From: Candidatus Multivorans sp.
Lineage (GTDB): Bacteria; Acidobacteriota; Thermoanaerobaculia; Multivoradales; Multivoraceae
Direction of reading: 5' to 3'
Length of the DNA: 64,000 nucleotides
Assembly: GCA_965247095.1 (NCBI GenBank)
Contig: OZ251997.1
Location: 407,949-471,948 of the forward strand
This document shows, piece by piece, positions 11,843-62,473 of the stretch (the stretch's first letter is position 1; each line of letters opens with the position of its first letter). Below the pieces are notes generated by a model. That model was not told the DNA's origin. It was given only the letters and a program-made list of their open reading frames with translations, and made no database searches. The translations under genes were made by a program, and so were the position numbers.

Positions 11843-12334
11843 GTGAATACCACGTCTGAAACGAGACGGTGGGCTCGAGAGCCGCTCCCGGCCCGCGCCG
11901 CGGCACGGTCCCGGTTGGTCGCCCTCGGCGCGCTCGCACTGACCGGGGTGTTCCTTGCATGCGCCGAGTCGGTGCCCCAACCGAACGAGAAAGGTCTGCG
12001 GGCTTCGTTCATTGCCCAGATCGAGGCCGACGAACACGTGAAGGACCTCAAGGTCTACGGCGACGAGATCCACTTCGCCCGCCGCGACGGCTCGGGTGAG
12101 CACGTCGAGTGGCGGGTGCGCATCGACTCGCTGGAGGTGTATGCCGGCGAGGCCGAAGGGGCCCAGGCGAAGGGTCAGGTCGTATCGGGCTGGAGCGTCG
12201 CCGGACGCCCGGTGTCGGTCGAGGTCGGGCCGGAGGGCCTGGTCACCGACATGCCGATCTGGGTGCTCGACGCCGGCCTGGCGCCCGAGTGCTGGGCGCT
12301 CTGGGACGAGGACGCGAAAGCCTGGGGCTGGTGA
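11843..12334 (+). CDS. Hypothetical lipoprotein, 163 aa
   Basis: GTG start; signal peptide with lipobox-like LACAES; no known domain recognised. Confidence 0.45.
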   Translation: MNTTSETRRWAREPLPARAAARSRLVALGALALTGVFLACAESVPQPNEKGLRASFIAQIEADEHVKDLKVYGDEIHFARRDGSGEHVEWRVRIDSLEVYAGEAEGAQAKGQVVSGWSVAGRPVSVEVGPEGLVTDMPIWVLDAGLAPECWALWDEDAKAWGW

Positions 12335-12408
12335 ACCGGTCGAAGCGCAGCCTGCGCGGCAGCTATGATCACGGCAGGCAGTTGAACACGGTGGTTGGAG
12401 GGCAGGCA

Positions 12409-13497
12409 ATGAGAAGGCATGAACGCTTGAACGTCGGTTGGACCGTGGCCATGGTCGTTGCACTCCTGGTTGTCGCCTTTGCCGGCGGCGCGGGCGCCGT
12501 GGGCAACAACGCCAACAATGCCACTGACGCCGACTGGACCATGCCTCGCACCGGCGCCGGTCATCCCGATCTCCAGGGCGTGTGGGCGAACAACAACGCG
12601 ACGCCGCTGCAACGTCCCGCCGCGTGGGCCGGCAAGGAACGCCTGACGGACGAGGAACTGCACCAGTTGATGGCTGCAGCGTCCGAGGCGACCAACCCCG
12701 GCGCGGACGCCCTGTTCGGCGACCAACTCGTGCTCGCCGCGATCGCGCGCACCGAGGCCACCTCTTACGACCCGACGACCGGCAACTACAACCAGTTCTG
12801 GATCGCGGACCGGGACTGGACGAACCGTACGTCCCTGGTCATCGATCCGCCGGACGGCCTGATCCCGCCCTTCACCGAACCGGCGAAGAAGCGTCTCTGC
12901 CAGCGGGTCAAGCACCTGATGGAGCACCCCGCCGACTCGTGGCTGGACCGGCCGATTCCCGAGCGGTGCATCAGCTACGGCGCTCCGTTCATCTTCCCGG
13001 GCTACAACGGCTACCACCAGGTCTTCCAGAGCGAGGACCACGTCGTGATTCACCAGGAGATGATCCACGACGCGCGGGTGATCCCGCTCGACGGCCGGGC
13101 GCAACTGGACGAGGACGTGCGGCTGTGGAACGGGTACTCCCGCGGTCACTGGGAGGGCGACACCTTGGTCGTCGAGACCACGAACTATTCGGAAAAGAAC
13201 GACTTCATGGGTTCTTCCGAGCAGTTGAAGATCACGGAGCGCTTCACCCTCACTGGCCCCGATACACTGGAGTGGGCGATCACGGTGAACGACCCGGGCA
13301 CCTGGACCAAGCCCTGGACGGCCTCGATCCCGCTCAAGCGCACCGAGGACGCGATCTTCGAGTACGCCTGCCACGAGGGCAACTACGCGATGGGAGGGAT
13401 GCTCTCCGGCGCCCGCACCGAGGAGGCGTCAGACAAGCCGAAGCAGCTCGATCCCGGCGCCGCGTTCCGGTATCCGGGTCTGACCTGCGACTTCTGA
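12409..13497 (+). CDS. Hypothetical secreted protein (362 aa) with N-terminal signal/TM segment
   Basis: Start moved to ATG 12409 (GGAG RBS 9 nt upstream; MRRHERLNVGWTVAMVVALLVVAFAGGAGA); upstream part of the 462-aa ORF is Arg/Gly-rich junk; coherent non-repetitive composition thereafter. Confidence 0.55.
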   Translation: MRRHERLNVGWTVAMVVALLVVAFAGGAGAVGNNANNATDADWTMPRTGAGHPDLQGVWANNNATPLQRPAAWAGKERLTDEELHQLMAAASEATNPGADALFGDQLVLAAIARTEATSYDPTTGNYNQFWIADRDWTNRTSLVIDPPDGLIPPFTEPAKKRLCQRVKHLMEHPADSWLDRPIPERCISYGAPFIFPGYNGYHQVFQSEDHVVIHQEMIHDARVIPLDGRAQLDEDVRLWNGYSRGHWEGDTLVVETTNYSEKNDFMGSSEQLKITERFTLTGPDTLEWAITVNDPGTWTKPWTASIPLKRTEDAIFEYACHEGNYAMGGMLSGARTEEASDKPKQLDPGAAFRYPGLTCDF

Positions 13498-13560
13498 TCG
13501 GTTCGGCGTTTCGCTGAGCGCGTTGCGCCGCCTTTTGCGGACGCGGGCGAGCGTCCTGCG

Positions 13561-13950
13561 TCAGCGGATGGTGCGGACTTCGATACCCGGCAGTTCCAGT
13601 TCGAGCCAGGCGCGGTCGCCGGTGAGAGCTGGTATTCCTAACAACGAAGCGGTGGCAAGGCAGGCGCGGTCGCCGAGGCCAAGACCTGCGGATGCAGTTG
13701 CGGGCCGGAGCGCGCCGCTTGAAAGGGCGACTTCTGAATCGAAAGGTAGTGTCTCCATTCTGAATTCGCCCAGCGTCTTCGCGACTTCTCTGGCCTCCCA
13801 TCCACGGTGATGGAGATGGGCGGCGACTTCAGCGAGGTTCACAGTGGAGATTGCCGCGCCGTCGCGCAAGGCGGCCCGGACGACCTCGGCGCCAGGCTCG
13901 CGCCAGAGCAGGGCCAACAGTGCCGAGGCATCGAGGAGGGCCCGAGCCAC
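13561..13950 (-). CDS. vapC: Type II toxin VapC (PIN domain ribonuclease)
   Basis: ALLDASALLALLWREPGAEVV... PIN-domain pattern, C-terminal acidic residues; probable GTG start ~13950 immediately after antitoxin TGA (start uncertain, ORF extends to 14037). Confidence 0.55.
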   Translation of the reverse strand: MARALLDASALLALLWREPGAEVVRAALRDGAAISTVNLAEVAAHLHHRGWEAREVAKTLGEFRMETLPFDSEVALSSGALRPATASAGLGLGDRACLATASLLGIPALTGDRAWLELELPGIEVRTIR

Positions 13951-13951
13951 C

Positions 13952-14293
13952 TCAGTCTCGTGCCGCCTCCCGGCGTCGCTCGGCGATGAAGGCGTCGACT
14001 TCGCTCCCCGATGAACTTGTGCCGTGCTTCCGGGCAAGGGCCTGGGCGCGGGCGACTGCCGCGTCCACCGCCGTTTCCACGGTTGTTATCCGGATCGTGT
14101 CGCCTTCGAGATCGAGGATGACCTTCTGTCGAGGCTGAAAACCCAATGCCGCGCGAAAATGGGCTGGTACTACGAGCCGGCCTGCGGAGTCGATGATGGT
14201 GGAAGTCTGTGCGGGAGCGGGTGTGGGATCATCTGCCATAGCGCAGGAGTCTACCATTGTGGCGCAGAATGGGAGGGTGCTCGGCTGTACCAC
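13952..14293 (-). CDS. vapB: Type II antitoxin VapB (AbrB/SpoVT/MazE-like swapped-hairpin domain)
   Basis: IIDSAGRLVVPAHFRAALGFQPRQKVILDLEGDTIRI matches SpoVT/AbrB fold antitoxins; sits immediately upstream of PIN toxin; true start may be internal (MADDPT...). Confidence 0.6.
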   Translation of the reverse strand: MVQPSTLPFCATMVDSCAMADDPTPAPAQTSTIIDSAGRLVVPAHFRAALGFQPRQKVILDLEGDTIRITTVETAVDAAVARAQALARKHGTSSSGSEVDAFIAERRREAARD

Positions 14294-14413
14294 GGGAGTG
14301 AGAGTAGTGGCCAGTCGCTGGGGCCAACGGTCAGCACGGCGGAGGGACGGACAAAGGTGATCACGCCGTCGCTCCGCCGTGCGTTGCCCGTATCGGCGGG
14401 TCGGTCGGCCCGG

Positions 14414-14710
14414 CTACACGCAGATCGTCATGCTCCGGAAGGTCAGGTGCATCCCGACGGCGGTCAAGAAGGGGGAGCCAAGAGCCTGGCCGACGGCCGT
14501 AAGGAGCGCTCCGGCGACCGAGTCGGTCCTGCAACTGTGGCTCCGCGCTCCTCCAGCCACTCTCGTCAGGTCGGTGACCGTGAGCTGGTCGAGGCCATCG
14601 TGGCCGATGGTCGAGGTGCCGCCCGCCATCACGGCGTCAGGCGGTGTGGCGAAGGAAGCGCCGACGCTCAATACAAGGGCGATCGATGCAGTGGCTAGGA
14701 ATCTCGTCAT
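14414..14710 (-). CDS. Small secreted protein (98 aa), paralog of 16896-17198; two Cys, C-terminal ...CV
   Basis: ATG at 14710 with conserved GAAAGGA RBS; signal peptide MTRFLATASIALVLSVGASFATPP; aligns with the other small protein (LSVG[GA][AS]FA.PP...G.D.L[DE]QL...PFL.A...CV); embedded in the 441-aa Arg-rich ORF which is rejected. Confidence 0.55.
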   Translation of the reverse strand: MTRFLATASIALVLSVGASFATPPDAVMAGGTSTIGHDGLDQLTVTDLTRVAGGARSHSCRTDSVAGALLTAVGQALGSPFLTAVGMHLTFRSMTICV

Positions 14711-14913
14711 GTCCAGTGGTCCTTTCGGTTGTAGAGGGTTGGGGGTAGCCAGGTGGTGGAGGCCGCTGTCCGCGGCTCTCGAGCCACCTATGGACCAAGA
14801 CGGAATCGGCGCGGCTCCGTTCGTCTCGGTCACTTCGGTCCGAGCCGGCAGGGTCGTGTCCTTGCCTTGCTGTGAGCATGAGCCGCCCGACCGGAGGAGC
14901 CCGGGAAGCGGGC

Positions 14914-15603
14914 TCAGCCGCTGAGCATCTGCTCGCGGCGCTCCGCACGGGCGAAGGTCAGGGCGACGATGGCGGCGATGATGAGGGCAATGCCTATACG
15001 GTTCTGGACGGCCATGGTGAGCAACTGCTCGGCGTCGCCCCCTTTCACGGCGAGCGGGTTCCACAATGGCGAGATGCGCGGCTCGACCGAGAGGTATGCC
15101 ATTCGAAGGTTCGGGGCGAGTAGTGCCATGGTTGCCATTGCGCCGGTGACCTCGCTTCGGAAGAGGGTGGCGAAACCCATCGCTGCTACCAGGTAGAAAG
15201 CGGCTCCCTGCGCCGTGCCGTAGATGGTCTGAACAACTGGAAAGGAAGTGAAGAAAGCAAAGGTAAGCACCGCCGTCGGCGTCAGACTTGCAAACAGGAT
15301 CAGCCCTGCGGCAGCGAGTTTTCCGGTCCATACGCGACGGGTGCCGCCGGGTACGGTGTAGGCGATCTCCAGGGTGCGCTCGTCGAGTTCGCCGGCGATG
15401 ATCCGGCCGCCCAGGAAGACGGCGAGAACCGCGACCGGCGCACCAATCAGGGTGTTCTGTGCGTCGGCGGGCTCGAAGTTGGGCCGAAGCCCGGAGATGA
15501 GCAGTATCGCCTGAATTCCCAACCACGGCAGGGGCAGCAGCGGCAGCAGCCAGTAACGCGGGCCCCCGATCAGCACGGCGGAGAGACGGAGAACGGTGAT
15601 CAT
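14914..15603 (-). CDS. ABC-2 family transporter permease, paralog 3 of 3
   Basis: 229 aa, ~6 TM; ~60-70% identical to 15762-16451 and 17458-18150; ATG overlaps upstream relic stop (ATGA). Confidence 0.7.
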   Translation of the reverse strand: MITVLRLSAVLIGGPRYWLLPLLPLPWLGIQAILLISGLRPNFEPADAQNTLIGAPVAVLAVFLGGRIIAGELDERTLEIAYTVPGGTRRVWTGKLAAAGLILFASLTPTAVLTFAFFTSFPVVQTIYGTAQGAAFYLVAAMGFATLFRSEVTGAMATMALLAPNLRMAYLSVEPRISPLWNPLAVKGGDAEQLLTMAVQNRIGIALIIAAIVALTFARAERREQMLSG

Positions 15604-15700
15604 GCCGGAGCTCGGTCACCGGTCGCCTGGGCCGGCCAGAGGTAGCCGTCCCCGACCCGTCCGAGGCCATGGCTCTCGATGACCGGTGTAGTGCCCGCCA
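15601..15700 (-). pseudogene. Relic 3' end of an ABC ATPase gene (duplication scar)
   Basis: Minus-strand translation ...TPVIESHGLGRVGDGYLWPAQATGDRAPA* matches C-terminus of the RND-ABC fusion protein (...PVEPTLEDGYLWLAQAARGRAPT*) and keeps the same ATGA stop/start junction with the following permease. Confidence 0.6.
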
Positions 15701-15761
15701 CGACCGAGTTGGGCGGTACAGCGACAGAGGGGCAGACACTCAAGACAAGTGGCGACTCCTG

Positions 15762-16451
15762 CTAGCGGCTGAGCATCTTCTCGCGACGCTCCGCGCGAGC
15801 GAAGGTCAGGGCGACGATGGCGGCGATGGTGAGCGCGATGCCGATGCGGTTCTGGATGGTCATGGCGAGCAACTGCTCGGCGTCGGCTCCTTTCACGGCG
15901 AGCGGGTTCCAGAACGGCGAGATGCGCAGGTGCCCGCCGAAGCCGGTCACAGAGCCGTTCAAGCCGAATAGCGCAATCGTGACCAAGGCACCGCTCACCT
16001 CGCTGCGGAACAGCGTGGAGAAACCCATCGCCGCGGCTAGGTAGAAGCTGGCTCCTTGGCCAGCACCGTGGAGGGTCTGGACGACCGGAAACGCGGTGAA
16101 GAAGGCGAACGCCAGAACAGTCATCGGGATCAGGCTGCCAAGCAGGATCAGGCCTGCGGCGGTTAGTTTCCCCCACCAGACCCGATGGGCGCCGCCCGGG
16201 ACGGTGTAGGCGACTTCAAGGGTGCGCTCGTCGAGTTCGCCGGTGATGATCCGGCCGCCGAGAAACACAGCGAGGATCGCTACTGGCGCACCGATCAAGG
16301 TGTTCTGTGCAGCGGCGGGTTCGAAGCCGGGACGGCCGGTGAACAGCAACAGCACCGCCTGAAGGCCTAGCCAAGTCAGTGGCAGCAGAGGTAGCAGCCA
16401 GTATCTTGGCCCTCCGATCAGCACGGCGGAAAGACGGACAACGGTTCTCAT
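15762..16451 (-). CDS. ABC-2 family transporter permease, paralog 2 of 3
   Basis: 229 aa multi-TM, paralogous to neighbours; ATG start overlapping relic stop. Confidence 0.7.
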   Translation of the reverse strand: MRTVVRLSAVLIGGPRYWLLPLLPLTWLGLQAVLLLFTGRPGFEPAAAQNTLIGAPVAILAVFLGGRIITGELDERTLEVAYTVPGGAHRVWWGKLTAAGLILLGSLIPMTVLAFAFFTAFPVVQTLHGAGQGASFYLAAAMGFSTLFRSEVSGALVTIALFGLNGSVTGFGGHLRISPFWNPLAVKGADAEQLLAMTIQNRIGIALTIAAIVALTFARAERREKMLSR

Positions 16452-16500
16452 TGCAGCTCTCCCCCGCGGGTTGCTTGGCCCGACCGGAGGTAGGTGTCTC
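16449..16500 (-). pseudogene. Second relic ABC-ATPase 3' end (duplication scar)
   Basis: C-terminus of the 116-aa ORF 16448..16798 reads ...PPRDTYLRSGQATRGGELQ*, resembling ...EDGYLWLAQAARGRAPT*; same ATGA junction with permease start. Confidence 0.45.
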
Positions 16501-16895
16501 TAGGCGGCGCGACGCCTCCTTCGCCTTGCATGTAGAGGGTGGTGGGCGGAGGGACTGGGGTGCAGGTACTCCGGTTCAGCATGTCCCGTCGCGACGAGCG
16601 GCCATCCTGCCGACGATCCAGAGAGCTGGCAGCGAGAAGAGGGATGCGATGGCGACGAACAGGACCGGAGAACCGCCGACGAGGGCCAACAGCCGACCGC
16701 TCAACCAGCTTCGCCCGAAGGCGCTGCCCGGGGCAGGTCGCAGCGGCCGGTAGGGGCGGCTTTGTAGGTCCATGAACGTCGCCATCGAGTCCTTCCAAAC
16801 AGGAGCGTGATGCGCTATCCGCCCGCCTCTTTCCGGGGCCGAAGCCGGCACCCGCAATCAGAGAGTCTCATCGAGCGAGACGGCGCCGTTGTTGG

Positions 16896-17198
16896 CTAGA
16901 CACACACAGCGTCCGCGAGGAACGGACCGGCCAACCCGGCAGCGTGCATGAGCCCCCTGCCCGTGTAGATCCCTACGAAGACAAAGGCCTCGCCCGTCGT
17001 CTCAAAAGCAGCAGTGCAAGCTCCGGACCACCAAGCTGCTCCCATCACGCCGACCATCTCGGCATCCGCGAGTTGTTCGAGCCCGGGATTGTCGACGCCC
17101 GGATAGTCGCCCGCCACGGCCGTGACAGGCGGTTCTGCGAAGGCGCCGCCGACACTCAGTACAAACGCTGCCACTGCGATAGATAGAACTTTCTTCAT
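16896..17198 (-). CDS. Small secreted protein (~100 aa), paralog of 14414-14710; two Cys, C-terminal ...CV
   Basis: ATG 17198 (MKKVLSIAVAAFVLSVGGAFAEPP) with GAAAGGA RBS; upstream in-frame ATG at 17222 also possible; signal peptide; paralogous alignment with the other small protein. Confidence 0.55.
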   Translation of the reverse strand: MKKVLSIAVAAFVLSVGGAFAEPPVTAVAGDYPGVDNPGLEQLADAEMVGVMGAAWWSGACTAAFETTGEAFVFVGIYTGRGLMHAAGLAGPFLADAVCV

Positions 17199-17457
17199 GA
17201 TTCTTGTTCCTTTCCGTTTCATGGGTTCTTGTTGCCGTCGACCCCTTCGGAGAGGCCGACGACGCTGGTAGACGGGAAGGTCCTGCGGAAGCCGAGGAGG
17301 CTTCGCAGGTCCACCGCCGCGCAGCGCCTTACGGCGTGCAGGGACTGTGGACCGCCTATAGACCTATGACGGAATTCGGAGCGGCTTTTTCTGGCGAGGA
17401 CCCTGAGAGGGGGCTGGGTGGCAGTGGCTGCGTGTCAGGTCGAGGGCGGAACCCGGC

Positions 17458-18150
17458 TCAGCCGCCGAGCATCTTCTCGCGGCGTTCGGCGCGGGCGAAT
17501 GTCAGGGCGACGATGGCGGCGATCGCGAGGGCGATGCCGATCCGGTTCTGGACGCTCATCGCGAGCATCTGGTCGGCGTCGGCTCGGTCCACCGAGAGGG
17601 GGTTCCAGAACGGCGAGATGCGGAGGGGGTTTTCGCCGAAGCCGGTGATCAGGCCGTTGAGGCCAAGGAGGCCGGTCGTGGTCAGGGCGCCGGCCACCTC
17701 GCTGCGGAACAGGGTGGCGAGCCCCATGGCTGCAACCAGGTAGAAGGTGACGCCCTGGGCCGCGCCGTAGAGACTCTGGAAGACGGGGAAGGAGGTGAAG
17801 AAGGCGAACGTGACGGACGCCATCAAGGCCAGACTGGCGAGTAGCAACAGGCCGGCTGCGGCGAGCTTGCCGAGCCAGACGCGGTGAGCGCCGCCGGGTA
17901 CGGTGTAGGCGATCTCAAGAGAGCGCTGGTCGAGTTCGCCGGTGATGATCCGCCCGCCCAGGAACACGGCGAGAACGGCCACCGGCATTCCGATCAGTGT
18001 GTTCTGGGCGGCGTCACGTTCGAAGCCCGTCGCGGCGCCGGCCAACAGCAGGATCGCCTGCACGGCTAGCCACAGTAGCGGCAGCAGGGGCAGCAACCAG
18101 TAGCGCCGCCCTGCCAGCAGCACCGCGGACAGACGCAGCACGGCGATCAC
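17458..18150 (-). CDS. ABC-2 family transporter permease, paralog 1 of 3 (cognate of the fused ATPase upstream)
   Basis: 230 aa multi-TM; GTG start overlapping the stop of the RND-ABC fusion ORF (GTGA). Confidence 0.7.
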   Translation of the reverse strand: MIAVLRLSAVLLAGRRYWLLPLLPLLWLAVQAILLLAGAATGFERDAAQNTLIGMPVAVLAVFLGGRIITGELDQRSLEIAYTVPGGAHRVWLGKLAAAGLLLLASLALMASVTFAFFTSFPVFQSLYGAAQGVTFYLVAAMGLATLFRSEVAGALTTTGLLGLNGLITGFGENPLRISPFWNPLSVDRADADQMLAMSVQNRIGIALAIAAIVALTFARAERREKMLGG

Positions 18151-21100
18151 GTCGGGGCTCTGCCGCGCGCCGCCTGCGCCAGCCAGAGGTAGCCGTCCTC
18201 GAGCGTGGGTTCGACTGGTTCGGCCCGCCGATCGGGGCGGTCGGCAGCCAGCACGCGCAGGCGGCTGCTGCCGTCGGGTTCCGGTTGGCGATCGGCGAGC
18301 ACGGACGCCTCGGGAAGCTCCGGCTCCTCATCTCCGGGCGCCGTCCATGACCAGACACGGCCTTCGGCCTCTCGGGACAGCGCCGCCGGCTCGCCGTCGA
18401 ACACCATGCGGCCGCCGGTGAGCACCAGTACGCGCTCGCAGGCCACCGCCACGTCCTCGACGACGTGGGTCGAGAAGAGGACGATGCGGTCCTTGGCCAG
18501 GCGCGAGAGCAGGTTGCGGAAGCGGACGCGCTCGCGTGGGTCGAGGCCGACGGTCGGCTCGTCGACGACGATGATCGGCGGCAGGCGCAACAGCGTGCGG
18601 GCCACCGCGACCCGCTGCCGCATGCCGCCGGAGTAGCCGCCGATCGGTTCGTCCGCTCGCTCGTCGAGTCCGACTTCGCGCAGCAGGGAGCCGATGCGCT
18701 CCGCTCGCTCCGACGCCTCGATCTGGTAGAGCGCGGCGTAGTACTCGAGGTACTGCCGGGCCGTCAGGCGCGCCGGCAGGCCGGCGTCCTGCGGCAGGTA
18801 GCCGACGTAGCGGGCCAGCCGTTTCCGTATCCTGAGCAGGGGCACGCCGCCCAGCGTGATCCGGCCGCGGGTCGAATCCAGAATGCCGGTCACCTGGCGG
18901 AGCAGGGTCGTCTTGCCCGCGCCGTTCGGACCCAGCACGCCGACCATGCCCCGCTCGACATCGAAGCTCACCGCGGCCAGCGCCTTCACCGTGTCGATCG
19001 GCAGATCGAGACCGAAGATCCGGGTTGCTGCCGCCCGCCAGAGGCGGATCAACATGCCGCGCCAGCCACGGGTGCGCCGGCGGCGGGTTGACCGCTGCTC
19101 CCGGCGCACCGTCTCGAGACGGGCCGTGCGACGTCCGAGTTGGATCAGAAGGATGATCGTGGAGAGGATGGCCACGACGATGAACCCGCCCACCGCGGGC
19201 TCGGTGGCGAGAGCCGGACCGACCAGGCCCGCGAGAAGCGCCCAGGGCAGCAGGGCGGACAGAACGCCCTCGATGCCGCCCGGCTCGACTCGACCAAGCG
19301 CGTCGGCGCGGCCGCGGGCACGCCGGACCTCGGTCAGCAGCCGGGAAGCGATCAGCAGTGCGGCAATCCAGGCGCCCAGTTGGATCAGGTCGGCACGGAA
19401 CCTCATGGCCAGGGCGACCGCGCCGGCGAGCAACAGGAGCAAGGGCAGGATGCGGTCCCGCGCGTCGGCGGGGTGGAAGGCCTGACCGCCGCGGTCGACG
19501 ACCTGCTTGGCGAAGTCGGTCGATGCCCGCAGCGCCCGGCGCACCGGCCCCGGCCGGCCGTAGGTCTTGCGCAGGTGACGGACCACCAGCCGGGGCGGTC
19601 CGGCGTCGGCCTCCGGTTCCGGTGTCGGCGGTTTTGGCACCAGCCACACGGTGAGCCCGAGCAGGGCGCCGGCGATGAGCACGGTCGTCGTGACCTGCCA
19701 GAACATGGACTCGATCACGCCGAGAACGAACAACGGGGCGGTGGCCGCGATCACCGCGCCGAGCCAGGTCAGAACCACCCAGGGTCCGACGCGGCTGAAG
19801 ACATCGTCCAGGCGCCGCAGAAAGACGTAGCCGACCGGGATGACGAGCAGCGTGAGCACGGTCGAGGTCAGAAGACCGCCGATCACCAGGGTCGCGAAGG
19901 GCGGCCAGAGCTCGTTCTCGCGTCCCGTGGCGATGGCCAGCGGTGCGAGCGCCGCGATCGTCGTCGCGCTGGTCATCAACACCGGACGCGCGCGCTCGCG
20001 AACCGCGGCCAGGGCGGCGGCGCCCGCACTCCAGCCGGCGCCGAGTACCCGTTGCTGCATCCGGTCGACGAGCAGAACCGCCGGGTTCACCGCCAGCCCG
20101 AGGAGGACGAGCGCCCCGAGCAGCGCCATCGGATCGAGCCCGATGCCGGAGAACATCAGCGCCCACAGCGAGCCGAGCAGGGCGAGCGGCAGCGCGAGCA
20201 GAACAAGGATCGGCAGGGTCATCGACTCGAACGCCACCGCCAGAACCAGGAACACGAGCATCACGACCGGCGCCAGGACGCGCCGGAACCAGCTCGTGTT
20301 CTCGTCCGAGCGGTCGAGCTCGATTGTCGTTCCGGGCGGACGGTGGATGCTGGCAAGCGCCTCGTCCAGGTTGCGGTCGAATTCCAGCCGCGCCGGTCCG
20401 CCGCTTGGTACGTCGGACGAGACGCTGTAGATGACCTCCCGCTCGCGGCGGCCGTTGTGGTGTGTGATCACCGGGGAAGCCGGCGCGCGGCGCACCTGCG
20501 CCAAGGCGGCTACTGGCAGGACGCCAGCGCTCGTGGAGACGCGGAGCCGGGACAGGCCGCTCAGCGACGCCTCGCGCTCGAAACTGCTGCCGTCCACGAC
20601 CCGGGCGTCACTGGGTCGGTTCTCCGCGCGCTGGACGACGATCGGAAGCTCACGGCCGTTCGGAAGCGGGAAGCCGCTGTTGATGCTCGTACCCTCACGG
20701 CCGGCGAGACTCAGCATCGGCAGCACATCGTCGAGCAGGACGCCGAAGGTGTCGAAGGCGCGACGGTTCGGGCTGACGTGGATCTCGTCGGGGCCGGGCC
20801 GTGAGGCTAGAAAGGCGCCGCTGATCCCCTCGATCTCCTTGAGCCGCTCGGCGACCTCCGTGGCCAGACCGGTCAACTGGTCGTTGTCGTTTCCGGACAG
20901 GATGACCCGTTTCGGCCCTGCCCCGAGCAACTCCTGGGCGCCGCCGCCACCGCCGGGACCGCCGCCCCGACCGCCCGGGCCTTCGCCTTCGCCGGGTCGC
21001 AGAATCTCGGTACCGGCGCGCCGGTTCGCGGCCCGGCGTACGAGCTGACGGATCCGCGCCGCGGTCAGTTCCTCGGGGCGGTCCTCGAGTGCCTCGAGGT

Positions 21101-22964
21101 GGACCGTCAACGAGCCCCCCTCCTCGCGGATCATGCTTTCGACGCGGTCCACGCCGTCGACTTCATGGACCGCCTCCAGAGGCTGGAAGGCGCGCACCGC
21201 GGAATCGAGCGAACTCCGGCTCTCGTCGAGGCGCACGGAGAACTGGACCTGGTCCGCGATCTCTGCTTCTGGCGACACTGTGTTTCCGAGCACAAAGGGC
21301 AGGGCCACGAGCGCGGTGACGACGACGGCGAGAGCCACCGACGTGATCCAGCTCGCAGGCCGCCTCAGTGCCGAGGCGAGAACTCCTGCAAACAGGATGC
21401 GGATCGGGTCGGGCGGCGCCTGTCCGGCGAAGCGTTCGCGGCGCTGTCGCAATCGGGCCAGCCGGCGGATCGCCGCGGGCGCGGCGAGATGGCGGGCCAG
21501 CAGCGGTACGAGACCGATCGCCACCAACAGGGAACCGAACAGCGGCAGCAGGATCGAGAGGGCGGCGATCGCGATCAGGTTGCGGATCATCGACGATCCC
21601 AGGTCGACGAGCAGCGGCGGCACGAAGACGACCGCGGTGGTCACGGACGCGGCGATGATCGCGCGGGCGGTGCGGCGGATGCCTCCCGCCGCGGCGTCGT
21701 CGGGACTTCGGCCCCGCTCGAGGCGGCGTTGGACGGACTCGAAGACCACGACGCTGTTGTCGACCAGCAGTCCGACGCCGACCGCAAGGCCGAAGAGGCT
21801 GATCAGGTTCAGGGTCTGGCCGGCCAGGTAGAGGAAGGACAGCGCCGCGGCCAGGCTGACCGGCACCGCGATCGCTACCACCGCCACGGCCCGCCATTGG
21901 CGCAGGAAGAGGAACAGGACCGCAAGGGCGATCAGGAAGCCTGAGAGACCGAGGTTTCTCAGACGGCCGATCTGGGTCTCGACGAGTTCCGCGGCGTCGA
22001 GGCTGATGAGCAGATGAATGCCGAGGGGCTCGAGATCTGCGTTGACCTCCTCGATCCGGCGGCGCAGGTCGCGGCCGAGGCGAACCAGGTTCGCGCCCTC
22101 TTCCTGGAAGAGCAAGACCCCAACCGAGGGGTCGCCGTTGACCCGGAACAGCATTTGTCGGCGGCCGGGGCCGACTTCGATCTCGGCGACGTGGCGCACC
22201 AGAGCCGGCCGGTCCGGCACGATCCGAACCTCGCCCATGGACACCGGGCCGACGGGACGGCCGTCCAGCATCACCGCCGTTCGCCCGGCTTCGTCTTCCA
22301 GGCTGCCGAGGTAGCGCAAGCGGCCGGCCGCGGCGCGCACCGCCGCCGTCACCTGCTCCGTGGTGACGCCGAGCGCTGCACAGCGGTTCGGGTCGACCCA
22401 GACGGTCAACTGCCGCGACGCACCGCCGCCGACGATCGCCTGACTGACGCCCGGCACCGCGGCCAGCCGCGGCGTGACGAGTTCCACGACCAGGTCGTGC
22501 AGGGCGTTCTGGTCGGCGGCGCCGGTGACCTGCAGGACCATGGCGAAGCTGGAAATGGCACTGCTGTCCTGGGCCTGGACGTCCAGGAAAGCGTTCCGCG
22601 GCTGGGTGCGGGCGAGGTCCGCGGCGATCCGGCGCACCTCCAGCTCGCGGACCTTCAGGTCGACGCCGCGTTCGAAGAGGATCGTGAAGCTGCCGCCGGC
22701 GCCGCTGACCTCGCCCCAGGTCTCGGCGACCCGCGGCAGGGTCCGTACCCGGGCCTCGAGCGGCATCAGGATCTCCCGCTCGATCGTCTCCGGTTCGCTG
22801 CCCGGGCGGAAGAAGTTGACGTAGAGCTGGTCGCCGGTCAGGGCCGGGAAGAGTTCGACCGGCAGTCGTCGCCAGGCGAACAGCCCCAGGATCACAAACC
22901 CCAGGAAGAACATCGCCACGGCGACGGGGCGGCGAATGGCAAGGGTGTCGAGACCGGCTCTCAC
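18147..22964 (-). CDS. Fusion protein: RND (AcrB/HAE-type) efflux pump, ~4 extra TM helices, C-terminal ABC transporter ATP-binding domain (1605 aa)
   Basis: N-terminus MRAGLDTLAIRRPVAVAMFFLGFVILGLFAWRRLPVELFPAL and internal TM blocks (GLAVGVGLLVDNSVVVFESV, LVFLVLAVAFESMTLPILVLLALPLA) are RND hallmarks; C-terminal ~300 aa has Walker A GPNGAGKTTL, Q-loop, signature LSGGMRQRVAVARTL, Walker B IIVVDEPTVGLD, H-loop STHVVED; single uninterrupted frame; GTG start. Confidence 0.75.
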   Translation of the reverse strand: MRAGLDTLAIRRPVAVAMFFLGFVILGLFAWRRLPVELFPALTGDQLYVNFFRPGSEPETIEREILMPLEARVRTLPRVAETWGEVSGAGGSFTILFERGVDLKVRELEVRRIAADLARTQPRNAFLDVQAQDSSAISSFAMVLQVTGAADQNALHDLVVELVTPRLAAVPGVSQAIVGGGASRQLTVWVDPNRCAALGVTTEQVTAAVRAAAGRLRYLGSLEDEAGRTAVMLDGRPVGPVSMGEVRIVPDRPALVRHVAEIEVGPGRRQMLFRVNGDPSVGVLLFQEEGANLVRLGRDLRRRIEEVNADLEPLGIHLLISLDAAELVETQIGRLRNLGLSGFLIALAVLFLFLRQWRAVAVVAIAVPVSLAAALSFLYLAGQTLNLISLFGLAVGVGLLVDNSVVVFESVQRRLERGRSPDDAAAGGIRRTARAIIAASVTTAVVFVPPLLVDLGSSMIRNLIAIAALSILLPLFGSLLVAIGLVPLLARHLAAPAAIRRLARLRQRRERFAGQAPPDPIRILFAGVLASALRRPASWITSVALAVVVTALVALPFVLGNTVSPEAEIADQVQFSVRLDESRSSLDSAVRAFQPLEAVHEVDGVDRVESMIREEGGSLTVHLEALEDRPEELTAARIRQLVRRAANRRAGTEILRPGEGEGPGGRGGGPGGGGGAQELLGAGPKRVILSGNDNDQLTGLATEVAERLKEIEGISGAFLASRPGPDEIHVSPNRRAFDTFGVLLDDVLPMLSLAGREGTSINSGFPLPNGRELPIVVQRAENRPSDARVVDGSSFEREASLSGLSRLRVSTSAGVLPVAALAQVRRAPASPVITHHNGRREREVIYSVSSDVPSGGPARLEFDRNLDEALASIHRPPGTTIELDRSDENTSWFRRVLAPVVMLVFLVLAVAFESMTLPILVLLALPLALLGSLWALMFSGIGLDPMALLGALVLLGLAVNPAVLLVDRMQQRVLGAGWSAGAAALAAVRERARPVLMTSATTIAALAPLAIATGRENELWPPFATLVIGGLLTSTVLTLLVIPVGYVFLRRLDDVFSRVGPWVVLTWLGAVIAATAPLFVLGVIESMFWQVTTTVLIAGALLGLTVWLVPKPPTPEPEADAGPPRLVVRHLRKTYGRPGPVRRALRASTDFAKQVVDRGGQAFHPADARDRILPLLLLLAGAVALAMRFRADLIQLGAWIAALLIASRLLTEVRRARGRADALGRVEPGGIEGVLSALLPWALLAGLVGPALATEPAVGGFIVVAILSTIILLIQLGRRTARLETVRREQRSTRRRRTRGWRGMLIRLWRAAATRIFGLDLPIDTVKALAAVSFDVERGMVGVLGPNGAGKTTLLRQVTGILDSTRGRITLGGVPLLRIRKRLARYVGYLPQDAGLPARLTARQYLEYYAALYQIEASERAERIGSLLREVGLDERADEPIGGYSGGMRQRVAVARTLLRLPPIIVVDEPTVGLDPRERVRFRNLLSRLAKDRIVLFSTHVVEDVAVACERVLVLTGGRMVFDGEPAALSREAEGRVWSWTAPGDEEPELPEASVLADRQPEPDGSSRLRVLAADRPDRRAEPVEPTLEDGYLWLAQAARGRAPT

Positions 22965-22977
22965 GTCGCTTTCCGGT

Positions 22978-25900
22978 TCAGGCGCCGGACGGGTCGCGGC
23001 GGCGCCGGGTCAGTCGCATCGAGTCGAGTATCAGGTAGAGGCAGGGCAGCACGAGGAGCGAGCCGACGGTGGAGGTGAGGATGCCGCCGATGATCGTGTA
23101 CGCCATCGGGCTTCGCAGTTCCGCGGCTTCGCCGGCGCCTATGGCAAGCGGCGCCAGGACCAGGACAGTGGTCAGGGTCGTCATCAGGATCGGCCGCAGG
23201 CGGATCGCGGCGGCCCGGGCCAGTGCGGTGCGCCGCTCCATGCCGGCGGCGAGCAGCCGGCGGGCGGTGGCAATCAGGAGGACCGCGTCGTTCACCGCCA
23301 CGCCCGCGAGCACGATGAGGCCGAGCAGCGCCATGACACCGACCGGCCGTCCGAGGAAGCCGAGGGTGCAGGCGACGCCGACCAGGGCCAGGGGGATCGA
23401 GAACAACACCGTGAGCGGTTGGAGCAGGGACTCGAACGTTCCGGCGAGGACCATCAGCACGAGAACGAGCGCCAGCAGCCCCGCCCAGCGCAGTTCGCCG
23501 ACGGCGCGCTCGCGTTCCTCTTCCTCGCCGGCGAGACGGACGATCAGACCGGAGGGCAGGTCGGTTGCTGCGATCGTCTCGCCGGCTGCCGCGATCGCGC
23601 GCGGGTAGTCGCTGTCGTCGGCGACCCGGGCGGTCACCTGGGCGACGCGGCGCTGGTCGCGGCGGAAGACCTCGCGGGCGCCCTCGGCGGGGACGAAGCG
23701 GGCGACTTGGCCGAGGGCGAGGTCCGCGCCGTCGTTGCTCGTGAAGCGCAGTTTGGCGAGTTCCTCGGGCCGCGGCTGGGGCAGAGAGAGGACGACGTGG
23801 CGCTCCTCGTCTCCAGTCGAGAGCAGGGTGACCCTGCGGCCGTCGAGTGCGGCCTGGAGCACCCGGGCGATCGTTTCCAGGCCGACGCCGAGGCCGTCGG
23901 CCATCGCGCGGTCGAGTTCGATCCGCAGTTCCGGCGGTCCGCCCTCGAACGAGGAGCGGACGTTCCAGAGTTCGGATCGCACAGCCATCGCGTCGCGCAA
24001 CCTGGTGGCCGCCAGGCGCAGGTCGGGCAGCGACTGGCCCGCGATCTCGACCACGATCGGCGGTCCCGCGGAGCCGAGCGCGCGCGATAGCGCCGACGCC
24101 CCGACCTCCCACTCGATCTCGGTATCCGGCAGGTCTTGGAAGTTGGGCTGCAGGGCGGTCACGATCTGGCCGCCGGTCGGCCCTTCGGCGGACAGCCGGA
24201 CGAGCAGGCGGGCCGTGTTCTCCTCAGTCAGCTCCGTGGTCACGAGCCGATCGTCCTCGGGCAGGCGGCCGACCTCGGCCTGGATCGCCTGCAGGTGCTC
24301 GCCGGCAGCCTGCCTGACCGCCTCTTCCAGCGTCGCCACGGCGCCGGCGGTGGCCTCGACGCGCTGGCCGGGCGGGCCGACCATGCGCACCGAGAACTGC
24401 CGCGGGTCGGCAGGCGGCAGCAGTTCGCTGCCCAGTCCGAGCAGAACGTAGACGGCGCCGGCGGCGGCGAGCACCGCCACTCCGACGACCAGCCAGCGAA
24501 GCTGAAGCAGGCCGAGAACCAGGCGCTCGACGGCGCCGAAGGCCCAGCCCAGCGGACGCGCTTCGTCTTCGTCAGCGTCCACCGGCATGCTGATGGATGC
24601 CGCCGCCGATGCGTCGGCCGTGGGCTCGGGCGCGGCGGTTTGCGGTTTGGCGCGCGGCAGGAGCCAGCGCGACAGGGCCGGAATCAGCATGATCGCGACC
24701 GCCAGGGAGGCGCCGAGGGAGGCGGTGACGGTGAAGGCGATGCCTTCGATCAGGCGCGCCGCCAGACCCTGGACGAAGAGGACGGGCAGGAAGACAACGC
24801 ACGTAGTGAGCGTCGAGGCGGCAATCGCGCCCGCGACCTCGCCCGTGCCCCTGGCGGCCGTGTCGGCTGCCGAGGCGCCGGGGCGGTGGCGGCGGTGGAT
24901 GCTCTCCACGACGACGATCGCGTTGTCGACCAGCATGCCGGCGCCGAGCGCCAGCCCGGCCAGGGTGATGATGTTCAGAGAGTGCCCCCACAGCCGCATC
25001 GCGAACAGCGCGACGAACAGGGACACCGGCACCGCTGAAGCGACGACCAAGGTCGGACCGAGGGAGCGCAGGAACAGCGCCAGCACGACGACCGCCAGGG
25101 CGATGCCGATCAGCGCCGCGTTCGTCAGGTCGTCCATCGCGTCCTCGATCAGCGCGGCGTCGTCGTTGACCATCGAGACGAGGACCCGGGGCAGGTCGCG
25201 CTCGAGGTCGTCGAGCGCCGCGCGCACGGTGCGCGAGACCTCCACGGTGTTGGCGCCCGCCTCCTTGAACACCTGCAGGCCGACGCCCTCCTGGCCGTTC
25301 ACCCGCACCAGGTGGTCGATCTCGGCGTGTGCGAGTTCGACCGTGGCGACGTCGGAGACCCGGATCGGCTGACGGACCTGCCGGCCTCCCTCCGCCTGCT
25401 GGGTGCGGTAGCGCACGACGACCCGCTCGACATCGCGGGAGTTCCGGAACCGGGAGATGCCTCGAACGAGATAGACCTGACCGCCGTCCTCCAGGGTGCC
25501 GGCGTCGATGTCGACGTTCTCGGCCACGAGGCGTTGCTCCAGTTGGTCCAAGGTGACGCCGAACGCCTGCAGGCGGTAGCGGTCGACGCGTACGCGGACC
25601 TCCAGTTCCCGCCCTCCGAGGACCCGCACCTCGGCAACGTCGGCGAGCTGCTCCATGGCCGGCGCCACCTGACGGCGCGCCAGGCGGCGGAGCTCGGCGA
25701 GATCAGGTCCTTCCGGCTCGGCGGCCAGCCCAAGGGTGATCACCGGCGACTGCCTCGGATCGAGTTGGCGGACCAGGACCTCGTCGACTTCGGGGTCGGC
25801 CGCGACCGGATTGACCGCCTTCTGCACGTCGATCAGCGCCAGGTCCATGTCGGCGTCCCAGTCGAAGCGGACGGTGGCGATCAGGCGGCCGGTGCGGGCG

Positions 25901-26172
25901 ACCTGGTGCACCTCGCGGAGGCCGCGCACCGTGAACAGGCGCTGCTCGACCTGCTCGCCGTAGAGCCGCTCCATCTCGGTCGGCGGCCGGTCGCCGGAAC
26001 GCACGGCGACGACGATGGTCGGCGAACGCAGGTCGGGCAGGAGGTCGATCGGCAGTTCACGCCACGACATCCAGCCCACCAAGGCGAATGCCAGGGCGGT
26101 GACGGTGACCGCTACGGGCCGGCGCGCAGCCAGGCGGGCGGGGCCGAAGGTCTCACCGGATGTTCGAGTCAT
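22978..26172 (-). CDS. RND efflux transporter permease subunit (AcrB/HAE family), 1064 aa
   Basis: MTRTSGETFGPARLAARRPVAVTVTALAFALVGWMSWRELPIDLLPDL..., 12-TM RND organisation with two large periplasmic loops; 13 bp upstream of the fusion gene. Confidence 0.8.
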   Translation of the reverse strand: MTRTSGETFGPARLAARRPVAVTVTALAFALVGWMSWRELPIDLLPDLRSPTIVVAVRSGDRPPTEMERLYGEQVEQRLFTVRGLREVHQVARTGRLIATVRFDWDADMDLALIDVQKAVNPVAADPEVDEVLVRQLDPRQSPVITLGLAAEPEGPDLAELRRLARRQVAPAMEQLADVAEVRVLGGRELEVRVRVDRYRLQAFGVTLDQLEQRLVAENVDIDAGTLEDGGQVYLVRGISRFRNSRDVERVVVRYRTQQAEGGRQVRQPIRVSDVATVELAHAEIDHLVRVNGQEGVGLQVFKEAGANTVEVSRTVRAALDDLERDLPRVLVSMVNDDAALIEDAMDDLTNAALIGIALAVVVLALFLRSLGPTLVVASAVPVSLFVALFAMRLWGHSLNIITLAGLALGAGMLVDNAIVVVESIHRRHRPGASAADTAARGTGEVAGAIAASTLTTCVVFLPVLFVQGLAARLIEGIAFTVTASLGASLAVAIMLIPALSRWLLPRAKPQTAAPEPTADASAAASISMPVDADEDEARPLGWAFGAVERLVLGLLQLRWLVVGVAVLAAAGAVYVLLGLGSELLPPADPRQFSVRMVGPPGQRVEATAGAVATLEEAVRQAAGEHLQAIQAEVGRLPEDDRLVTTELTEENTARLLVRLSAEGPTGGQIVTALQPNFQDLPDTEIEWEVGASALSRALGSAGPPIVVEIAGQSLPDLRLAATRLRDAMAVRSELWNVRSSFEGGPPELRIELDRAMADGLGVGLETIARVLQAALDGRRVTLLSTGDEERHVVLSLPQPRPEELAKLRFTSNDGADLALGQVARFVPAEGAREVFRRDQRRVAQVTARVADDSDYPRAIAAAGETIAATDLPSGLIVRLAGEEEERERAVGELRWAGLLALVLVLMVLAGTFESLLQPLTVLFSIPLALVGVACTLGFLGRPVGVMALLGLIVLAGVAVNDAVLLIATARRLLAAGMERRTALARAAAIRLRPILMTTLTTVLVLAPLAIGAGEAAELRSPMAYTIIGGILTSTVGSLLVLPCLYLILDSMRLTRRRRDPSGA

Positions 26173-61899: not shown

Positions 61900-62473
61900 C
61901 CTGGCTGCCTTGATCCGAGTGGTGGATCACGTCCTCGGGTCTCCGCTGGGCGATCGCCATCTTCAGCGCGCCGACCACGAGGTCGGTTGCCAGAGACGAA
62001 TCCATGGCCCAGCCGACGATGCGCCGACTGAACGCGTCAAGGACGATCGCCAGGTACAGGAAACCGGCAAGGGTCGGCACGTAGGTGATGTCCGCGAGCC
62101 ACAACCGGTCGGGGCCTTCGGCTGTGAACTCCCTCTCGACGAGGTCCGGCGCCGGGCGAGCTGACGGGGCGCGGCGCGTCGCCTTCGGCCGCTTGCGGCG
62201 GCTGATGCCCGCCAGACCGGACTCTCGCATGAGTCTGGCGACCCGCTTGCGGCTCACTGGGAACCCCTCGTCAGCCAACTCGGCCTGAATCCTCGGCGCA
62301 CCGTAGGTCCCGCGGCTGCGTTCGTGGATCGCCCGCACGCGCTCCGCCAGAGCGCTGTCCGACTTCTCCCTGGCCGACCGCTCTCGCTTCAACCAGGCGT
62401 AGTACCCGCTCGTGGAGACCCCGAGCACTCGGGCCATCGTCGTGATCCGGAACTCGGCCTGGTGCGCTCTCAT
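61838..62473 (-). pseudogene. IS3-family transposase OrfB, N-terminal part (HTH_21 + start of integrase core), truncated by IS30
   Basis: ...RLWLADITYVPTLAGFLYLAIVLDAFSRRIVGWAM...VIHHSDQGSQ then runs into IS30 end sequence (GGFNWSSQHLVMEVFRDGSW*). Confidence 0.75.

Follow-up and report, generated by a model that had tools for sequence, protein, structure and literature searches.

Two putative microcin-like peptide precursors with a composite leader in a transporter operon of Candidatus Multivorans (Acidobacteriota)

We analysed a stretch of 64,000 nucleotides from Candidatus Multivorans sp. (GenBank assembly GCA_965247095.1, contig OZ251997.1, positions 407,949 to 471,948), hereafter called the window. 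Its minus strand carries an operon for RND and ABC transporter proteins in which two small genes are embedded, pepA (16896–17198) and pepB (14414–14710). We consider it slightly more probable than the opposite that both encode precursors of microcin-like, disulfide-stapled toxins. These would leave the cytoplasm through Sec and mature in the periplasm, after which the ABC-2/RND machinery would expel or neutralise them; this function is deduced from sequence comparison. The peptides would most likely be of the class II bacteriocin or class IIa microcin kind, unmodified, and made by a diderm acidobacterium.

Precursor genes, leaders and cores

The gene pepA runs from an ATG at 17196–17198 to a TAG at 16896–16898 and encodes a precursor of 100 aa (MKKVLSIAVAAFVLSVGGAFAEPPVTAVAGDYPGVDNPGLEQLADAEMVGVMGAAWWSGACTAAFETTGEAFVFVGIYTGRGLMHAAGLAGPFLADAVCV), whereas pepB encodes a precursor of 98 aa (MTRFLATASIALVLSVGASFATPPDAVMAGGTSTIGHDGLDQLTVTDLTRVAGGARSHSCRTDSVAGALLTAVGQALGSPFLTAVGMHLTFRSMTICV). 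Both lie on the minus strand in a GC-rich region (~65–72%). An in-frame ATG is also present at 17222, 5' of the pepA start; its frame is not kept in other genomes, and the start was therefore placed at 17198. Each gene is preceded by the Shine-Dalgarno sequence GAAAGGA (17208–17214 for pepA and 14720–14726 for pepB, both on the minus strand), 9 nt before the ATG, and this sequence is kept at the peptide genes in all homologous loci. A previous reading of the window from its letters (the sequence-only reading) had proposed this shared ribosome-binding site, together with small paralogous proteins that carry a signal peptide and two Cys; all of these points are borne out. The two proteins are 33% identical from end to end (BLASTP, E = 3 × 10−12) and by this comparison are true paralogs, and each has exactly two Cys (C61 and C99 in pepA, C60 and C97 in pepB).

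Neither protein had a match in Pfam (E ≤ 0.01), NCBIfam (no relevant match at E ≤ 1) or PADLOC, which agrees with the earlier statement that they fall in no recognisable family. Matches to the NCBIfam models of BrnQ and YghX (E 0.005–0.16) were dismissed because they were hundreds of bits under the cut-offs. A word-indexed search of 5.8 billion proteins returned 23 relatives, all 97–100 aa long and unnamed, and an exhaustive profile search of 1.84 billion cluster representatives returned only 27 family members. The genome matches were in Candidatus Multivorans and other metagenome-assembled genomes of Thermoanaerobaculia (Acidobacteriota). Judged from these searches, the peptide family is tiny, confined to Thermoanaerobaculia-like Acidobacteriota and without annotation; a literature search for "Candidatus Multivorans" found no paper. 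The sequence-only reading had made its proposal depend on conservation of the open reading frame (ORF) in related genomes. As a gene of ~97–100 aa, the ORF is kept in 23 close and 27 more distant database clusters and also in every syntenic locus fetched.

Inspection and Kyte-Doolittle hydropathy indicated an n-h-c signal peptide of 21 residues on both precursors, ending in AFA|E in pepA (aa 1–21, nt 17136–17198) and in SFA|T in pepB (aa 1–21). The regions in pepA are MKK, VLSIAVAAFVLSVGG and AFA|E, with no lipobox. The charged n-region, the h-region and the small residues at −3 and −1 are kept family-wide. The signal peptide is followed by L-[TS]-D-A-[DE]-[ML]-x-x-V-x-G-[GA]. In an alignment of the close family, residues 1–60 are strongly conserved and residues 62–98 are hypervariable; the only invariant positions towards the C-terminus are C61, G69, G88 and C99.

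The conserved block was compared with double-glycine (GG) leaders in 53 distinct family members, distant ones included, which were registered on the G at −2. The consensus ahead of the first Cys was L(−15)EQL(−12)[T/S]DA[D/E](−8)[M/L](−7)xxV(−4)xG(−2)[G/A](−1). Hydrophobic residues occupied −4, −7, −12 and −15 in 100%, 85%, 92% and 79% of the members, position −8 was acidic in 74%, and T or S stood at −11. Independently of the registration, all aligned members of the close family have G(−2), and nearly all distant ones do. The residues at −2 and −1 are canonical in both window peptides (G53-A54 in pepA, G53-G54 in pepB), since GG and GA are both accepted cleavage sites of double-glycine leaders (PMC10233263). 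By sequence, then, the block matches the classical double-glycine leader pattern LSxxELxxIxGG. Its recognition helix corresponds to residues 40–54 of pepA (L40-E-Q-L-A-D-A-E-M-V-G-V-M-G53-A54) and is not N-terminal, because a signal-peptide-like segment of 21 residues and a spacer of ~18 residues come first. The predicted leader is thus composite, consisting of a Sec-type signal peptide (1–21), the spacer and a GG-type recognition helix (40–54); the GG-type propeptide of pepA would span aa 22–54 (nt 17037–17135).

The presumptive mature peptide is the variable C-terminus of 44–46 residues with a Cys at either end, that is, aa 55–100 in pepA (nt 16899–17036, with C61 and C99) and aa 55–98 in pepB (ARSHSC...TICV, with C60 and C97, within 14414–14710). 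These cores are Gly/Ala-rich and hydrophobic or amphipathic, with a mass of ~4.5 kDa. After position 35, all 53 members have exactly two Cys, 33–38 residues apart, and the last one is usually 1–2 residues from the C-terminus (4 in one member). No enzyme for the modification of ribosomally synthesised peptides was found near pepA and pepB among the scanned ORFs of the window.

This architecture, including the GG motif, was absent from the sequence-only reading and revises it in part. The "conserved core" LSVG.AFA.PP...GL[ED]QL described there belongs to the leader, and the PFL...CV similarity, also assigned to a conserved core, is weak between the paralogs and falls in a region that is hypervariable across the family. 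The same reading had offered exported cargo and a periplasmic accessory component as alternatives. Exported cargo is much the better fit and an accessory component the poorer one, because the N-terminal 54 residues are conserved whereas the ~45 C-terminal ones are hypervariable, because the conserved block fits a double-glycine leader, and because a C39 leader peptidase adjoins the genes of relatives, as described below.

The weakest family match, P0050 (85 aa; L017 4325–4582 and L018 4256–4513, where L numbers denote related loci), carries a signal peptide and, after it, a textbook LNETELEEVKGG leader. It is without the Cys pair, and its neighbours are small unknown ORFs; RND, permease and C39 genes are absent there. 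From this context, the tandem of Sec and GG leaders may also exist outside the present system.

Polymorphic peptide and permease cassettes

We compared 14 syntenic loci (L002–L014 and the window). The flanking proteins are 90–98% identical across them; this set comprises the membrane fusion protein (MFP), RND1, RND2::ABC, an unknown secreted protein, an MFS transporter, an RNR-like protein and a phosphodiesterase. The arrays themselves vary, with 2–4 permeases and 2–3 peptides. Peptides of type A (MKKVL...), to which pepA belongs as subtype A1, form seven core subtypes. Type B peptides (MTRF..., including pepB) are always the final gene of the array and have a fairly conserved core, including in the distant clade L059–L064. 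In four loci a type C peptide takes the place of type B.

Between the A subtypes, the proportion of nonsynonymous differences (pN) was 0.50 in the core versus 0.13 in the leader, and the proportion of synonymous differences (pS) was 0.62 versus 0.25; identity was 31% in the core versus 75% in the leader. Core pN/pS within subtypes had a mean of ~0.8 and exceeded 1 in several pairs. Because the divergence of the cores is far above that of the leaders, the cores are old, distinct alleles grafted onto a homogenised leader. Recombination breakpoints were found at the leader/core boundary.

The window has three permease genes on the minus strand: perm1 (17458–18150, 230 aa), perm2 (15762–16451, 229 aa), which lies directly downstream of pepA, and perm3 (14914–15603, 229 aa). 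When 37 permeases were clustered at 85% identity, perm1 was conserved whatever the peptide subtype. The permease downstream of a type A peptide followed the subtype: A1 was followed by cluster 9 (in the window, L002 and L012), A3 by cluster 4, A7 by cluster 10, A2 by cluster 8 and A6 by cluster 12. Same-subtype pairs shared the permease cluster in 16 of 20 cases, versus a shuffled mean of 3.7 (p ~ 5 × 10−5), and a Mantel test gave r = 0.59. Peptide and downstream permease therefore look, in their sequences, as if they behave as a toxin/immunity cassette. The cluster of perm2 (9) was seen only behind subtype A1 peptides, and perm2 is the putative cognate immunity/export subunit of pepA.

Orphan permeases also occur in the arrays. 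Cluster 10, to which perm3 belongs, follows subtype A7 peptides in L011 and L013; because the window has no A7 peptide gene, perm3 is an orphan there. Pairing each peptide with its upstream permease was considered and rejected, since the upstream one is almost always the conserved perm1 regardless of subtype. Cassette polymorphism was a further feature that the sequence-only reading did not contain.

Mobile elements were observed in and near the arrays. IS21-like istA/istB genes lie between pepA and its permease in L008 (10300–12800), and in L013 (8406–9746) perm1 is separated from pepA by a DDE_Tnp_1 transposase. The window has an rve-family integrase fragment at 61838–62473 (minus strand), outside the array. 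A VapBC-like pair (AbrB-type antitoxin and PIN toxin) follows the last peptide gene in L001 (13218–13607), L013 (13735–14404) and L009 (13450–13734). At the equivalent position of the window (13500–14400, ~900 bp) there is no convincing ORF and the GC content at third codon positions (GC3) is lower; this segment may be a decayed remnant of such a pair.

An element of the form TTCCGTC-N(1–6)-GGTCYATAG precedes each peptide gene, whether of type A, B or C, by about 80–180 nt. On the minus strand of the window it reads TTCCGTCATAGGTCTATAG at 17356–17374, 158–176 nt before the pepA start, and TTCCGTCTTGGTCCATAG at 14788–14805, 78–95 nt before the pepB start. There are exactly 2 matches in the 64-kb window versus 0 expected, and the element is also present at L002–L014 and L059–L061. 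It is unlike a sigma-70 promoter, and it is a candidate for an alternative-sigma promoter, an operator, an anti-Shine-Dalgarno sequence or an RNA element. A scan for sigma-70 promoters and terminators gave nothing useful. In type A genes the element opens a 5' leader of ~190 nt (window 17199–17400, minus strand), which is more conserved than the peptide core. Three hairpins and a long-range TTCC:GGAA pairing of the upstream element with the ribosome-binding site were predicted for it, so that the 5' leader may pair with this site in the model. Double changes were seen in 7 of 43 predicted pairs, which is little covariation. An Rfam search of 13500–18300 gave only chance-level matches, and none for the 5' leader.

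The dedicated regulation hinted at by such an element at each peptide gene would also suit secreted signalling peptides, that is, GG-processed pheromones or induction factors whose cores are strain-specific "pherotypes". GG-leader peptides are known to include quorum-sensing pheromones beside bacteriocins (Dirix 2004, as cited in PMC5557850), and a conserved leader with a variable core and a co-varying membrane protein would likewise suit pherotype/receptor pairs. However, no histidine kinase or response regulator was found in the region of the window or in any related locus, and the co-varying partner is an ABC-2 permease rather than a sensor. The Gly/Ala-rich, hydrophobic or amphipathic cores of 44–46 residues are closer to membrane-active peptides, and orphan permeases suit immunity better than sensing. 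We regard signalling as improbable on this evidence.

A doubtful small ORF lies between pepA and perm2 (16576–16857, minus strand; L001 10414–10716) and is annotated as a gene of 71–100 aa in several assemblies. An "FVAIAS" motif is shared across assemblies, and the end of the ORF overlaps the permease start. It carries a frameshifting insertion of 35 bp in the window and L012, and a premature stop in L013. We rejected it as a confident gene for an immunity-like protein on account of the frameshift, the stop and a pN/pS of ~1 in all three frames; it is probably a non-coding spacer.

Transporter machinery, C39 peptidases and the proposed route

That the peptide genes lie inside a transporter operon had been stated before, and RND, RND::ABC and permease genes do surround them. 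The order on the minus strand is ABC ATPase (30857–31858, 333 aa, a separate protein and the first gene of the operon), an ABC-2/Golvesin_C membrane protein (27309–30860, 1183 aa, with Golvesin_C at its C-terminus), the MFP (26212–27300, 5' end approximate, HlyD/CzcB/YknX-like by Pfam), RND1 (22978–26172, an AcrB-family transporter of 1064 aa), RND2::ABC (18147–22964, 1605 aa), perm1, pepA, perm2, perm3 and pepB. The perm1 start overlaps the RND2::ABC stop. The scanned high-GC3 ORFs of the window included no C39 peptidase, no peptidase-containing ABC transporter (PCAT), no kinase and no outer-membrane factor.

RND2::ABC, which the sequence-only reading did not mention, joins an AcrB-like RND part (aa 8–1049) to an ABC ATPase (aa ~1331–1471), with about six extra transmembrane (TM) segments between them. 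The fusion is kept at 78–97% identity in more than 20 related loci and is therefore not an assembly artefact; it is split by a frameshift in L019. We know of no description of an RND–ABC fusion. The presence of RND1 beside it suggests, from the gene content, a heteromeric pump with its own ATPase, and RND2::ABC is the presumed energiser of the permeases.

The permeases matched PF12679 at 17–25 bits (perm1 at 23 bits), below the cut-off of 27.2, but some close homologs carry a precomputed PF12679 match, and the JGI label is that of NosY-type permeases. The permease family has more than 834 database homologs (clusters). An AlphaFold2 (AF2) model built from 38 homologs had a pLDDT of 79 and a pTM of 0.77. 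Foldseek matched it to NosY, KpsM, Wzm, PmtCD, TarG and ABCG2 (prob ≤ 0.99, TM 0.5–0.6, E ~ 0.2); NosY was the nearest structural match, and PmtCD was among the top matches of the perm1 model (prob ~ 0.9, TM ~ 0.5). A sequence-profile search of the PDB with the permease alignment returned nothing. According to the model, the permeases have the six-helix type V ABC-2 fold, so that perm1 to perm3 are read here as NosY-like ABC-2 membrane subunits.

Leader peptidases of the C39 family were found beside the peptide genes of relatives. In L015, L016 and L019 the order is peptide, permease, C39 (179 aa; PF03412, E = 2 × 10−30), peptide, and L019 has the same flanking genes and RND operon as the window. 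In L020, an RND::ABC gene (78% identical to that of the window), a C39 gene (207 aa) and a peptide gene are tightly spaced with no permease, and the cleavage region of the peptide is …LTDAQLATVIGG|EPLLDSTC…. In C39-containing loci the residue at −1 is G or A wherever the site is readable. The Q, C, H and D catalytic residues of these enzymes are invariant, and a single TM helix comes after an Arg-rich N-terminus, an arrangement from which the positive-inside rule predicts a periplasmic catalytic domain. A periplasm-facing C39 in relatives apparently agrees with a substrate delivered by Sec, and FapD, with substrates that have yet to be defined, is a precedent for a periplasmic C39 (PMC5557850).

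L021 (4300–11100) and L022 (7300–13100) encode a system that is related to this one but distinct from it. A thioredoxin-like membrane protein (weak Redoxin match, CGNC motif) and a stand-alone C39 are followed there by four tandem Gly/Ala-rich peptides, one of them Pro-rich, with a signal peptide, G[GA] and two Cys, and then by large membrane proteins and an ABC ATPase. The multi-TM proteins are of 537 aa (L021 and L022) and 630 aa (L021). The gene content of these loci suggests a wider class of Sec-plus-GG peptides.

The peptides might instead be transporter subunits, bitopic or periplasmic partners that stay on the permease for substrate recognition or regulation and are not released. Their genes are interleaved with the permeases and their copy number roughly follows the permease number; the N-terminal segment could be an uncleaved signal anchor, the AF2 model has helices in the core whose weak structural matches are membrane helical hairpins, and a physical complex would also yield the co-variation of subtype and permease. 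On the other hand, the permease family (>834 clusters) far exceeds the peptide family (27 representatives). Each partner can do without the other, because L020 has a peptide and a C39 without a permease and because orphan permeases occur without peptides. The AxA site, and a GG-type motif in peptides encoded next to a C39, point to proteolytic release, and a charged, hypervariable core would be unusual for a structural subunit. Such a role is unlikely in our judgement.

Another explanation is that the N-terminus is not a Sec signal but part of a long cytoplasmic leader, and that a PCAT encoded elsewhere in the genome processes and exports the peptides. The GG-type motif is classical, no protease was found in the locus, and the window covers 64 kb of a genome of ~4.6 Mb. 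Against this, the N-terminus is a textbook n-h-c segment with an AxA site that is kept across the whole family. The C39s linked to the family are stand-alone, with the Arg-rich N-terminus and single TM helix that predict an extracytoplasmic domain, and this domain needs a substrate in the periplasm. The invariant Cys pair and the thioredoxin-like membrane protein of L021 and L022 (a weak match) suit periplasmic oxidation. We give this explanation little weight.

The cargo could also be non-antagonistic, for example a metal-binding (Cu/thiol) peptide or a surface or matrix block matured by a periplasmic C39 as in Fap. The two invariant Cys, the NosY-like permeases (JGI name "multi-copper enzyme maturation" permeases) and the CzcB-like domains of the MFP would be in line with this, and FapD, the one known periplasmic C39, serves amyloid secretion (PMC5557850). 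A gene with a match to Cu2_monoox_C, the C-terminal domain of copper type II ascorbate-dependent monooxygenases, also lies divergently upstream of the operon (32081–33562, plus strand). That match is marginal, however (23.5 bits versus a cut-off of 23). A hypervariable core, co-existing subtypes and orphan partners would not be expected of a metallochaperone or matrix subunit. There is no conserved His/Met/Cys-rich metal motif beyond the Cys pair, and there are no amyloid-type repeats. This is very unlikely to be the role of the peptides. With regard to the divergent gene, amidation is unlikely because the peptides have no C-terminal Gly.

Under the toxin reading that we favour, the route would be as follows. 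The Sec-type signal peptide would bring the precursor to the periplasm, where signal peptidase I would cut at A21|E22. The GG-type propeptide would then be removed after G-[GA] to give an amphipathic or hydrophobic core of ~45 residues; in related lineages this step would fall to the stand-alone, N-terminally membrane-anchored C39 peptidase with its catalytic domain facing the periplasm. The two terminal Cys of the core would join as a disulfide in the periplasm. By analogy with LanFEG and PmtCD, the NosY-like ABC-2 permeases, driven by the ATPase fused to RND2, would clear the peptide from the inner membrane of the producer, and by analogy with MacAB-TolC and STII, the peptide would be handed to the MFP-RND pump and cross the outer membrane. 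The permease/RND route would then serve self-immunity and export in one. A peptide with a variable core and its downstream permease would form a matched cassette that is swapped between strains, and permease genes that lack a peptide partner would represent orphan immunity genes.

Several results weigh against this reading. Firstly, no curated bacteriocin-type leader model of NCBIfam or Pfam matched the peptides, and the literature searched contained no description of a tandem Sec signal and GG leader. Secondly, 12 of the 31 peptides from Multivorans loci without C39 have E or R at position −1, which is atypical for C39 sites. A tblastn search with related C39s found none in the whole 64-kb window or in any of the 20-kb Multivorans loci, the scanned ORFs of the window and these loci had no Pfam match to a C39 or PCAT, and the stand-alone C39 family had no member on contigs as large as Multivorans chromosomes. 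Thirdly, the operon showed no gene for an outer-membrane factor. Fourthly, the co-variation has exceptions and caveats: permeases of cluster 5 lie behind A4 as well as A5 peptides (finer clustering to split the A4- from the A5-associated permeases gave no separation), physical linkage alone could account for the signal in part or in full, and pepB and the type C peptides have no downstream permease. Finally, the AF2 model of pepA, in which the core is predicted to be helical, had moderate confidence (pLDDT 66), and Foldseek found nothing significant for it in the PDB (best E 4.8); we therefore do not claim structural homology.

A further and more doubtful proposal, which we put forward tentatively, is that the system represents an undescribed toxin route of diderms, with a tandem Sec and GG leader, a periplasmic C39 and an RND–ABC machine whose interchangeable permease cassettes set specificity, that its peptides are the first defined substrate class for periplasmic C39 enzymes, and that it is the first microcin-like system in Acidobacteriota. 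If the favoured reading is right, double-glycine processing can follow Sec export in one pathway, and GG-leader peptide toxins reach beyond Enterobacteriaceae into an uncultured, environmentally common phylum. The peptides would provide natural, sequence-defined substrates for periplasmic C39 enzymes, of which FapD is the only studied example. The unusual RND–ABC fusion would be a peptide export and immunity engine, and the polymorphic cassettes would offer ready peptide/permease pairs for work on peptide recognition by ABC-2 exporters. Should this reading be wrong, a conserved, unannotated family of small proteins tied to an odd transporter still stands.

Two further genes, conserved but of no known family, are oriented towards the array. 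They are located at 12400–13497 (plus strand; a secreted protein of ~365 aa) and 11843–12334 (plus strand; 163 aa). A homolog of the ~365-aa protein (36% identical) lies directly downstream of the ABC ATPase in L021 and L022, which hints that this protein is functionally linked to the peptide systems.

Comparison with known systems

The closest parallel is with class IIa microcins (microcin V, L) and class II GG bacteriocins. These are likewise small ribosomal peptides, presumed unmodified in our case, whose leaders close with GG or GA, are acidic at −8 and have hydrophobic residues at −4, −7, −12 and −15. Their cores are Gly/Ala-rich, hydrophobic and weakly conserved, with disulfide bonds that would also form here, and they have a dedicated immunity/export locus with an MFP (PMC10233263), the immunity part being putative in the window. 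However, class IIa microcin leaders have 15–18 residues versus 54 here (Sec signal, spacer and GG part), and more generally the leader of GG-leader peptides is normally the extreme N-terminus (about 15–30 aa), whereas the GG-type motif here occupies residues 40–54. Class IIa microcins use a PCAT, an MFP and TolC. The scanned window ORFs include an MFP but no PCAT, the C39 of relatives is stand-alone, apparently periplasmic and absent from the window, and the machinery consists of an RND pair with a fused ABC ATPase and ABC-2 permeases. The core is also shorter, ~45 aa (~4.5 kDa) versus 60–90 aa (5–10 kDa), and all 15 characterised class IIa microcins are from Enterobacteriaceae, whereas the host here is an acidobacterium.

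Sec-dependent class II bacteriocins of the enterocin P type share a Sec-type signal peptide and a Cys-containing peptide with the present family. The signal peptide is their sole leader, whereas a second, GG-type propeptide is predicted here; the literature searched treats Sec and GG leaders as alternative export routes. Because the producer is a diderm, a second step across the outer membrane would be needed, unlike in the enterocin P type.

LanFEG and PmtCD also have ABC-2-type membrane subunits of ~230 aa encoded beside peptide genes, a likeness known here from the genes. PmtCD exports phenol-soluble modulins, which are amphipathic peptide toxins, and protects the producer (PMC12623860), and LanFEG expels lantibiotics (PMC5786555). 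Their ATPase is separate (LanF/PmtA-like), while in the window an RND transporter carries it as its C-terminal domain. In addition, several paralogous permeases occur here as polymorphic cassettes, and their nearest fold is NosY.

FapD of the Pseudomonas Fap system is a C39 that acts outside the cytoplasm on Sec-exported proteins (PMC5557850), and the C39s of relatives are predicted to face the periplasm too. The substrates of FapD are without canonical GG leaders, whereas the peptides encoded beside the C39s here carry GG or GA. The present system is not amyloid-related, and the window has no C39 gene.

The enterotoxin STII is exported by Sec, loses its signal, gains its disulfides in the periplasm and is then expelled by MacAB-TolC (PMC8277102). 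A two-step route of Sec and then a tripartite pump would be common to both systems, with a putative relation of cargo and pump in our case. The pump here is of the RND type with a fused ABC ATPase and separate ABC-2 permeases, rather than of the MacB type, and its operon shows no outer-membrane factor gene.

Polymorphic toxin/immunity loci resemble the arrays in their overall logic. Both have a conserved N-terminal trafficking part, a hypervariable C-terminus and a matched downstream gene, as well as orphan immunity-like genes, insertion sequence elements and breakpoints between leader and core. They differ in that the putative toxins here are peptides of ~45 residues rather than large multidomain proteins, and in that the putative immunity genes encode transporter subunits rather than small binding proteins.

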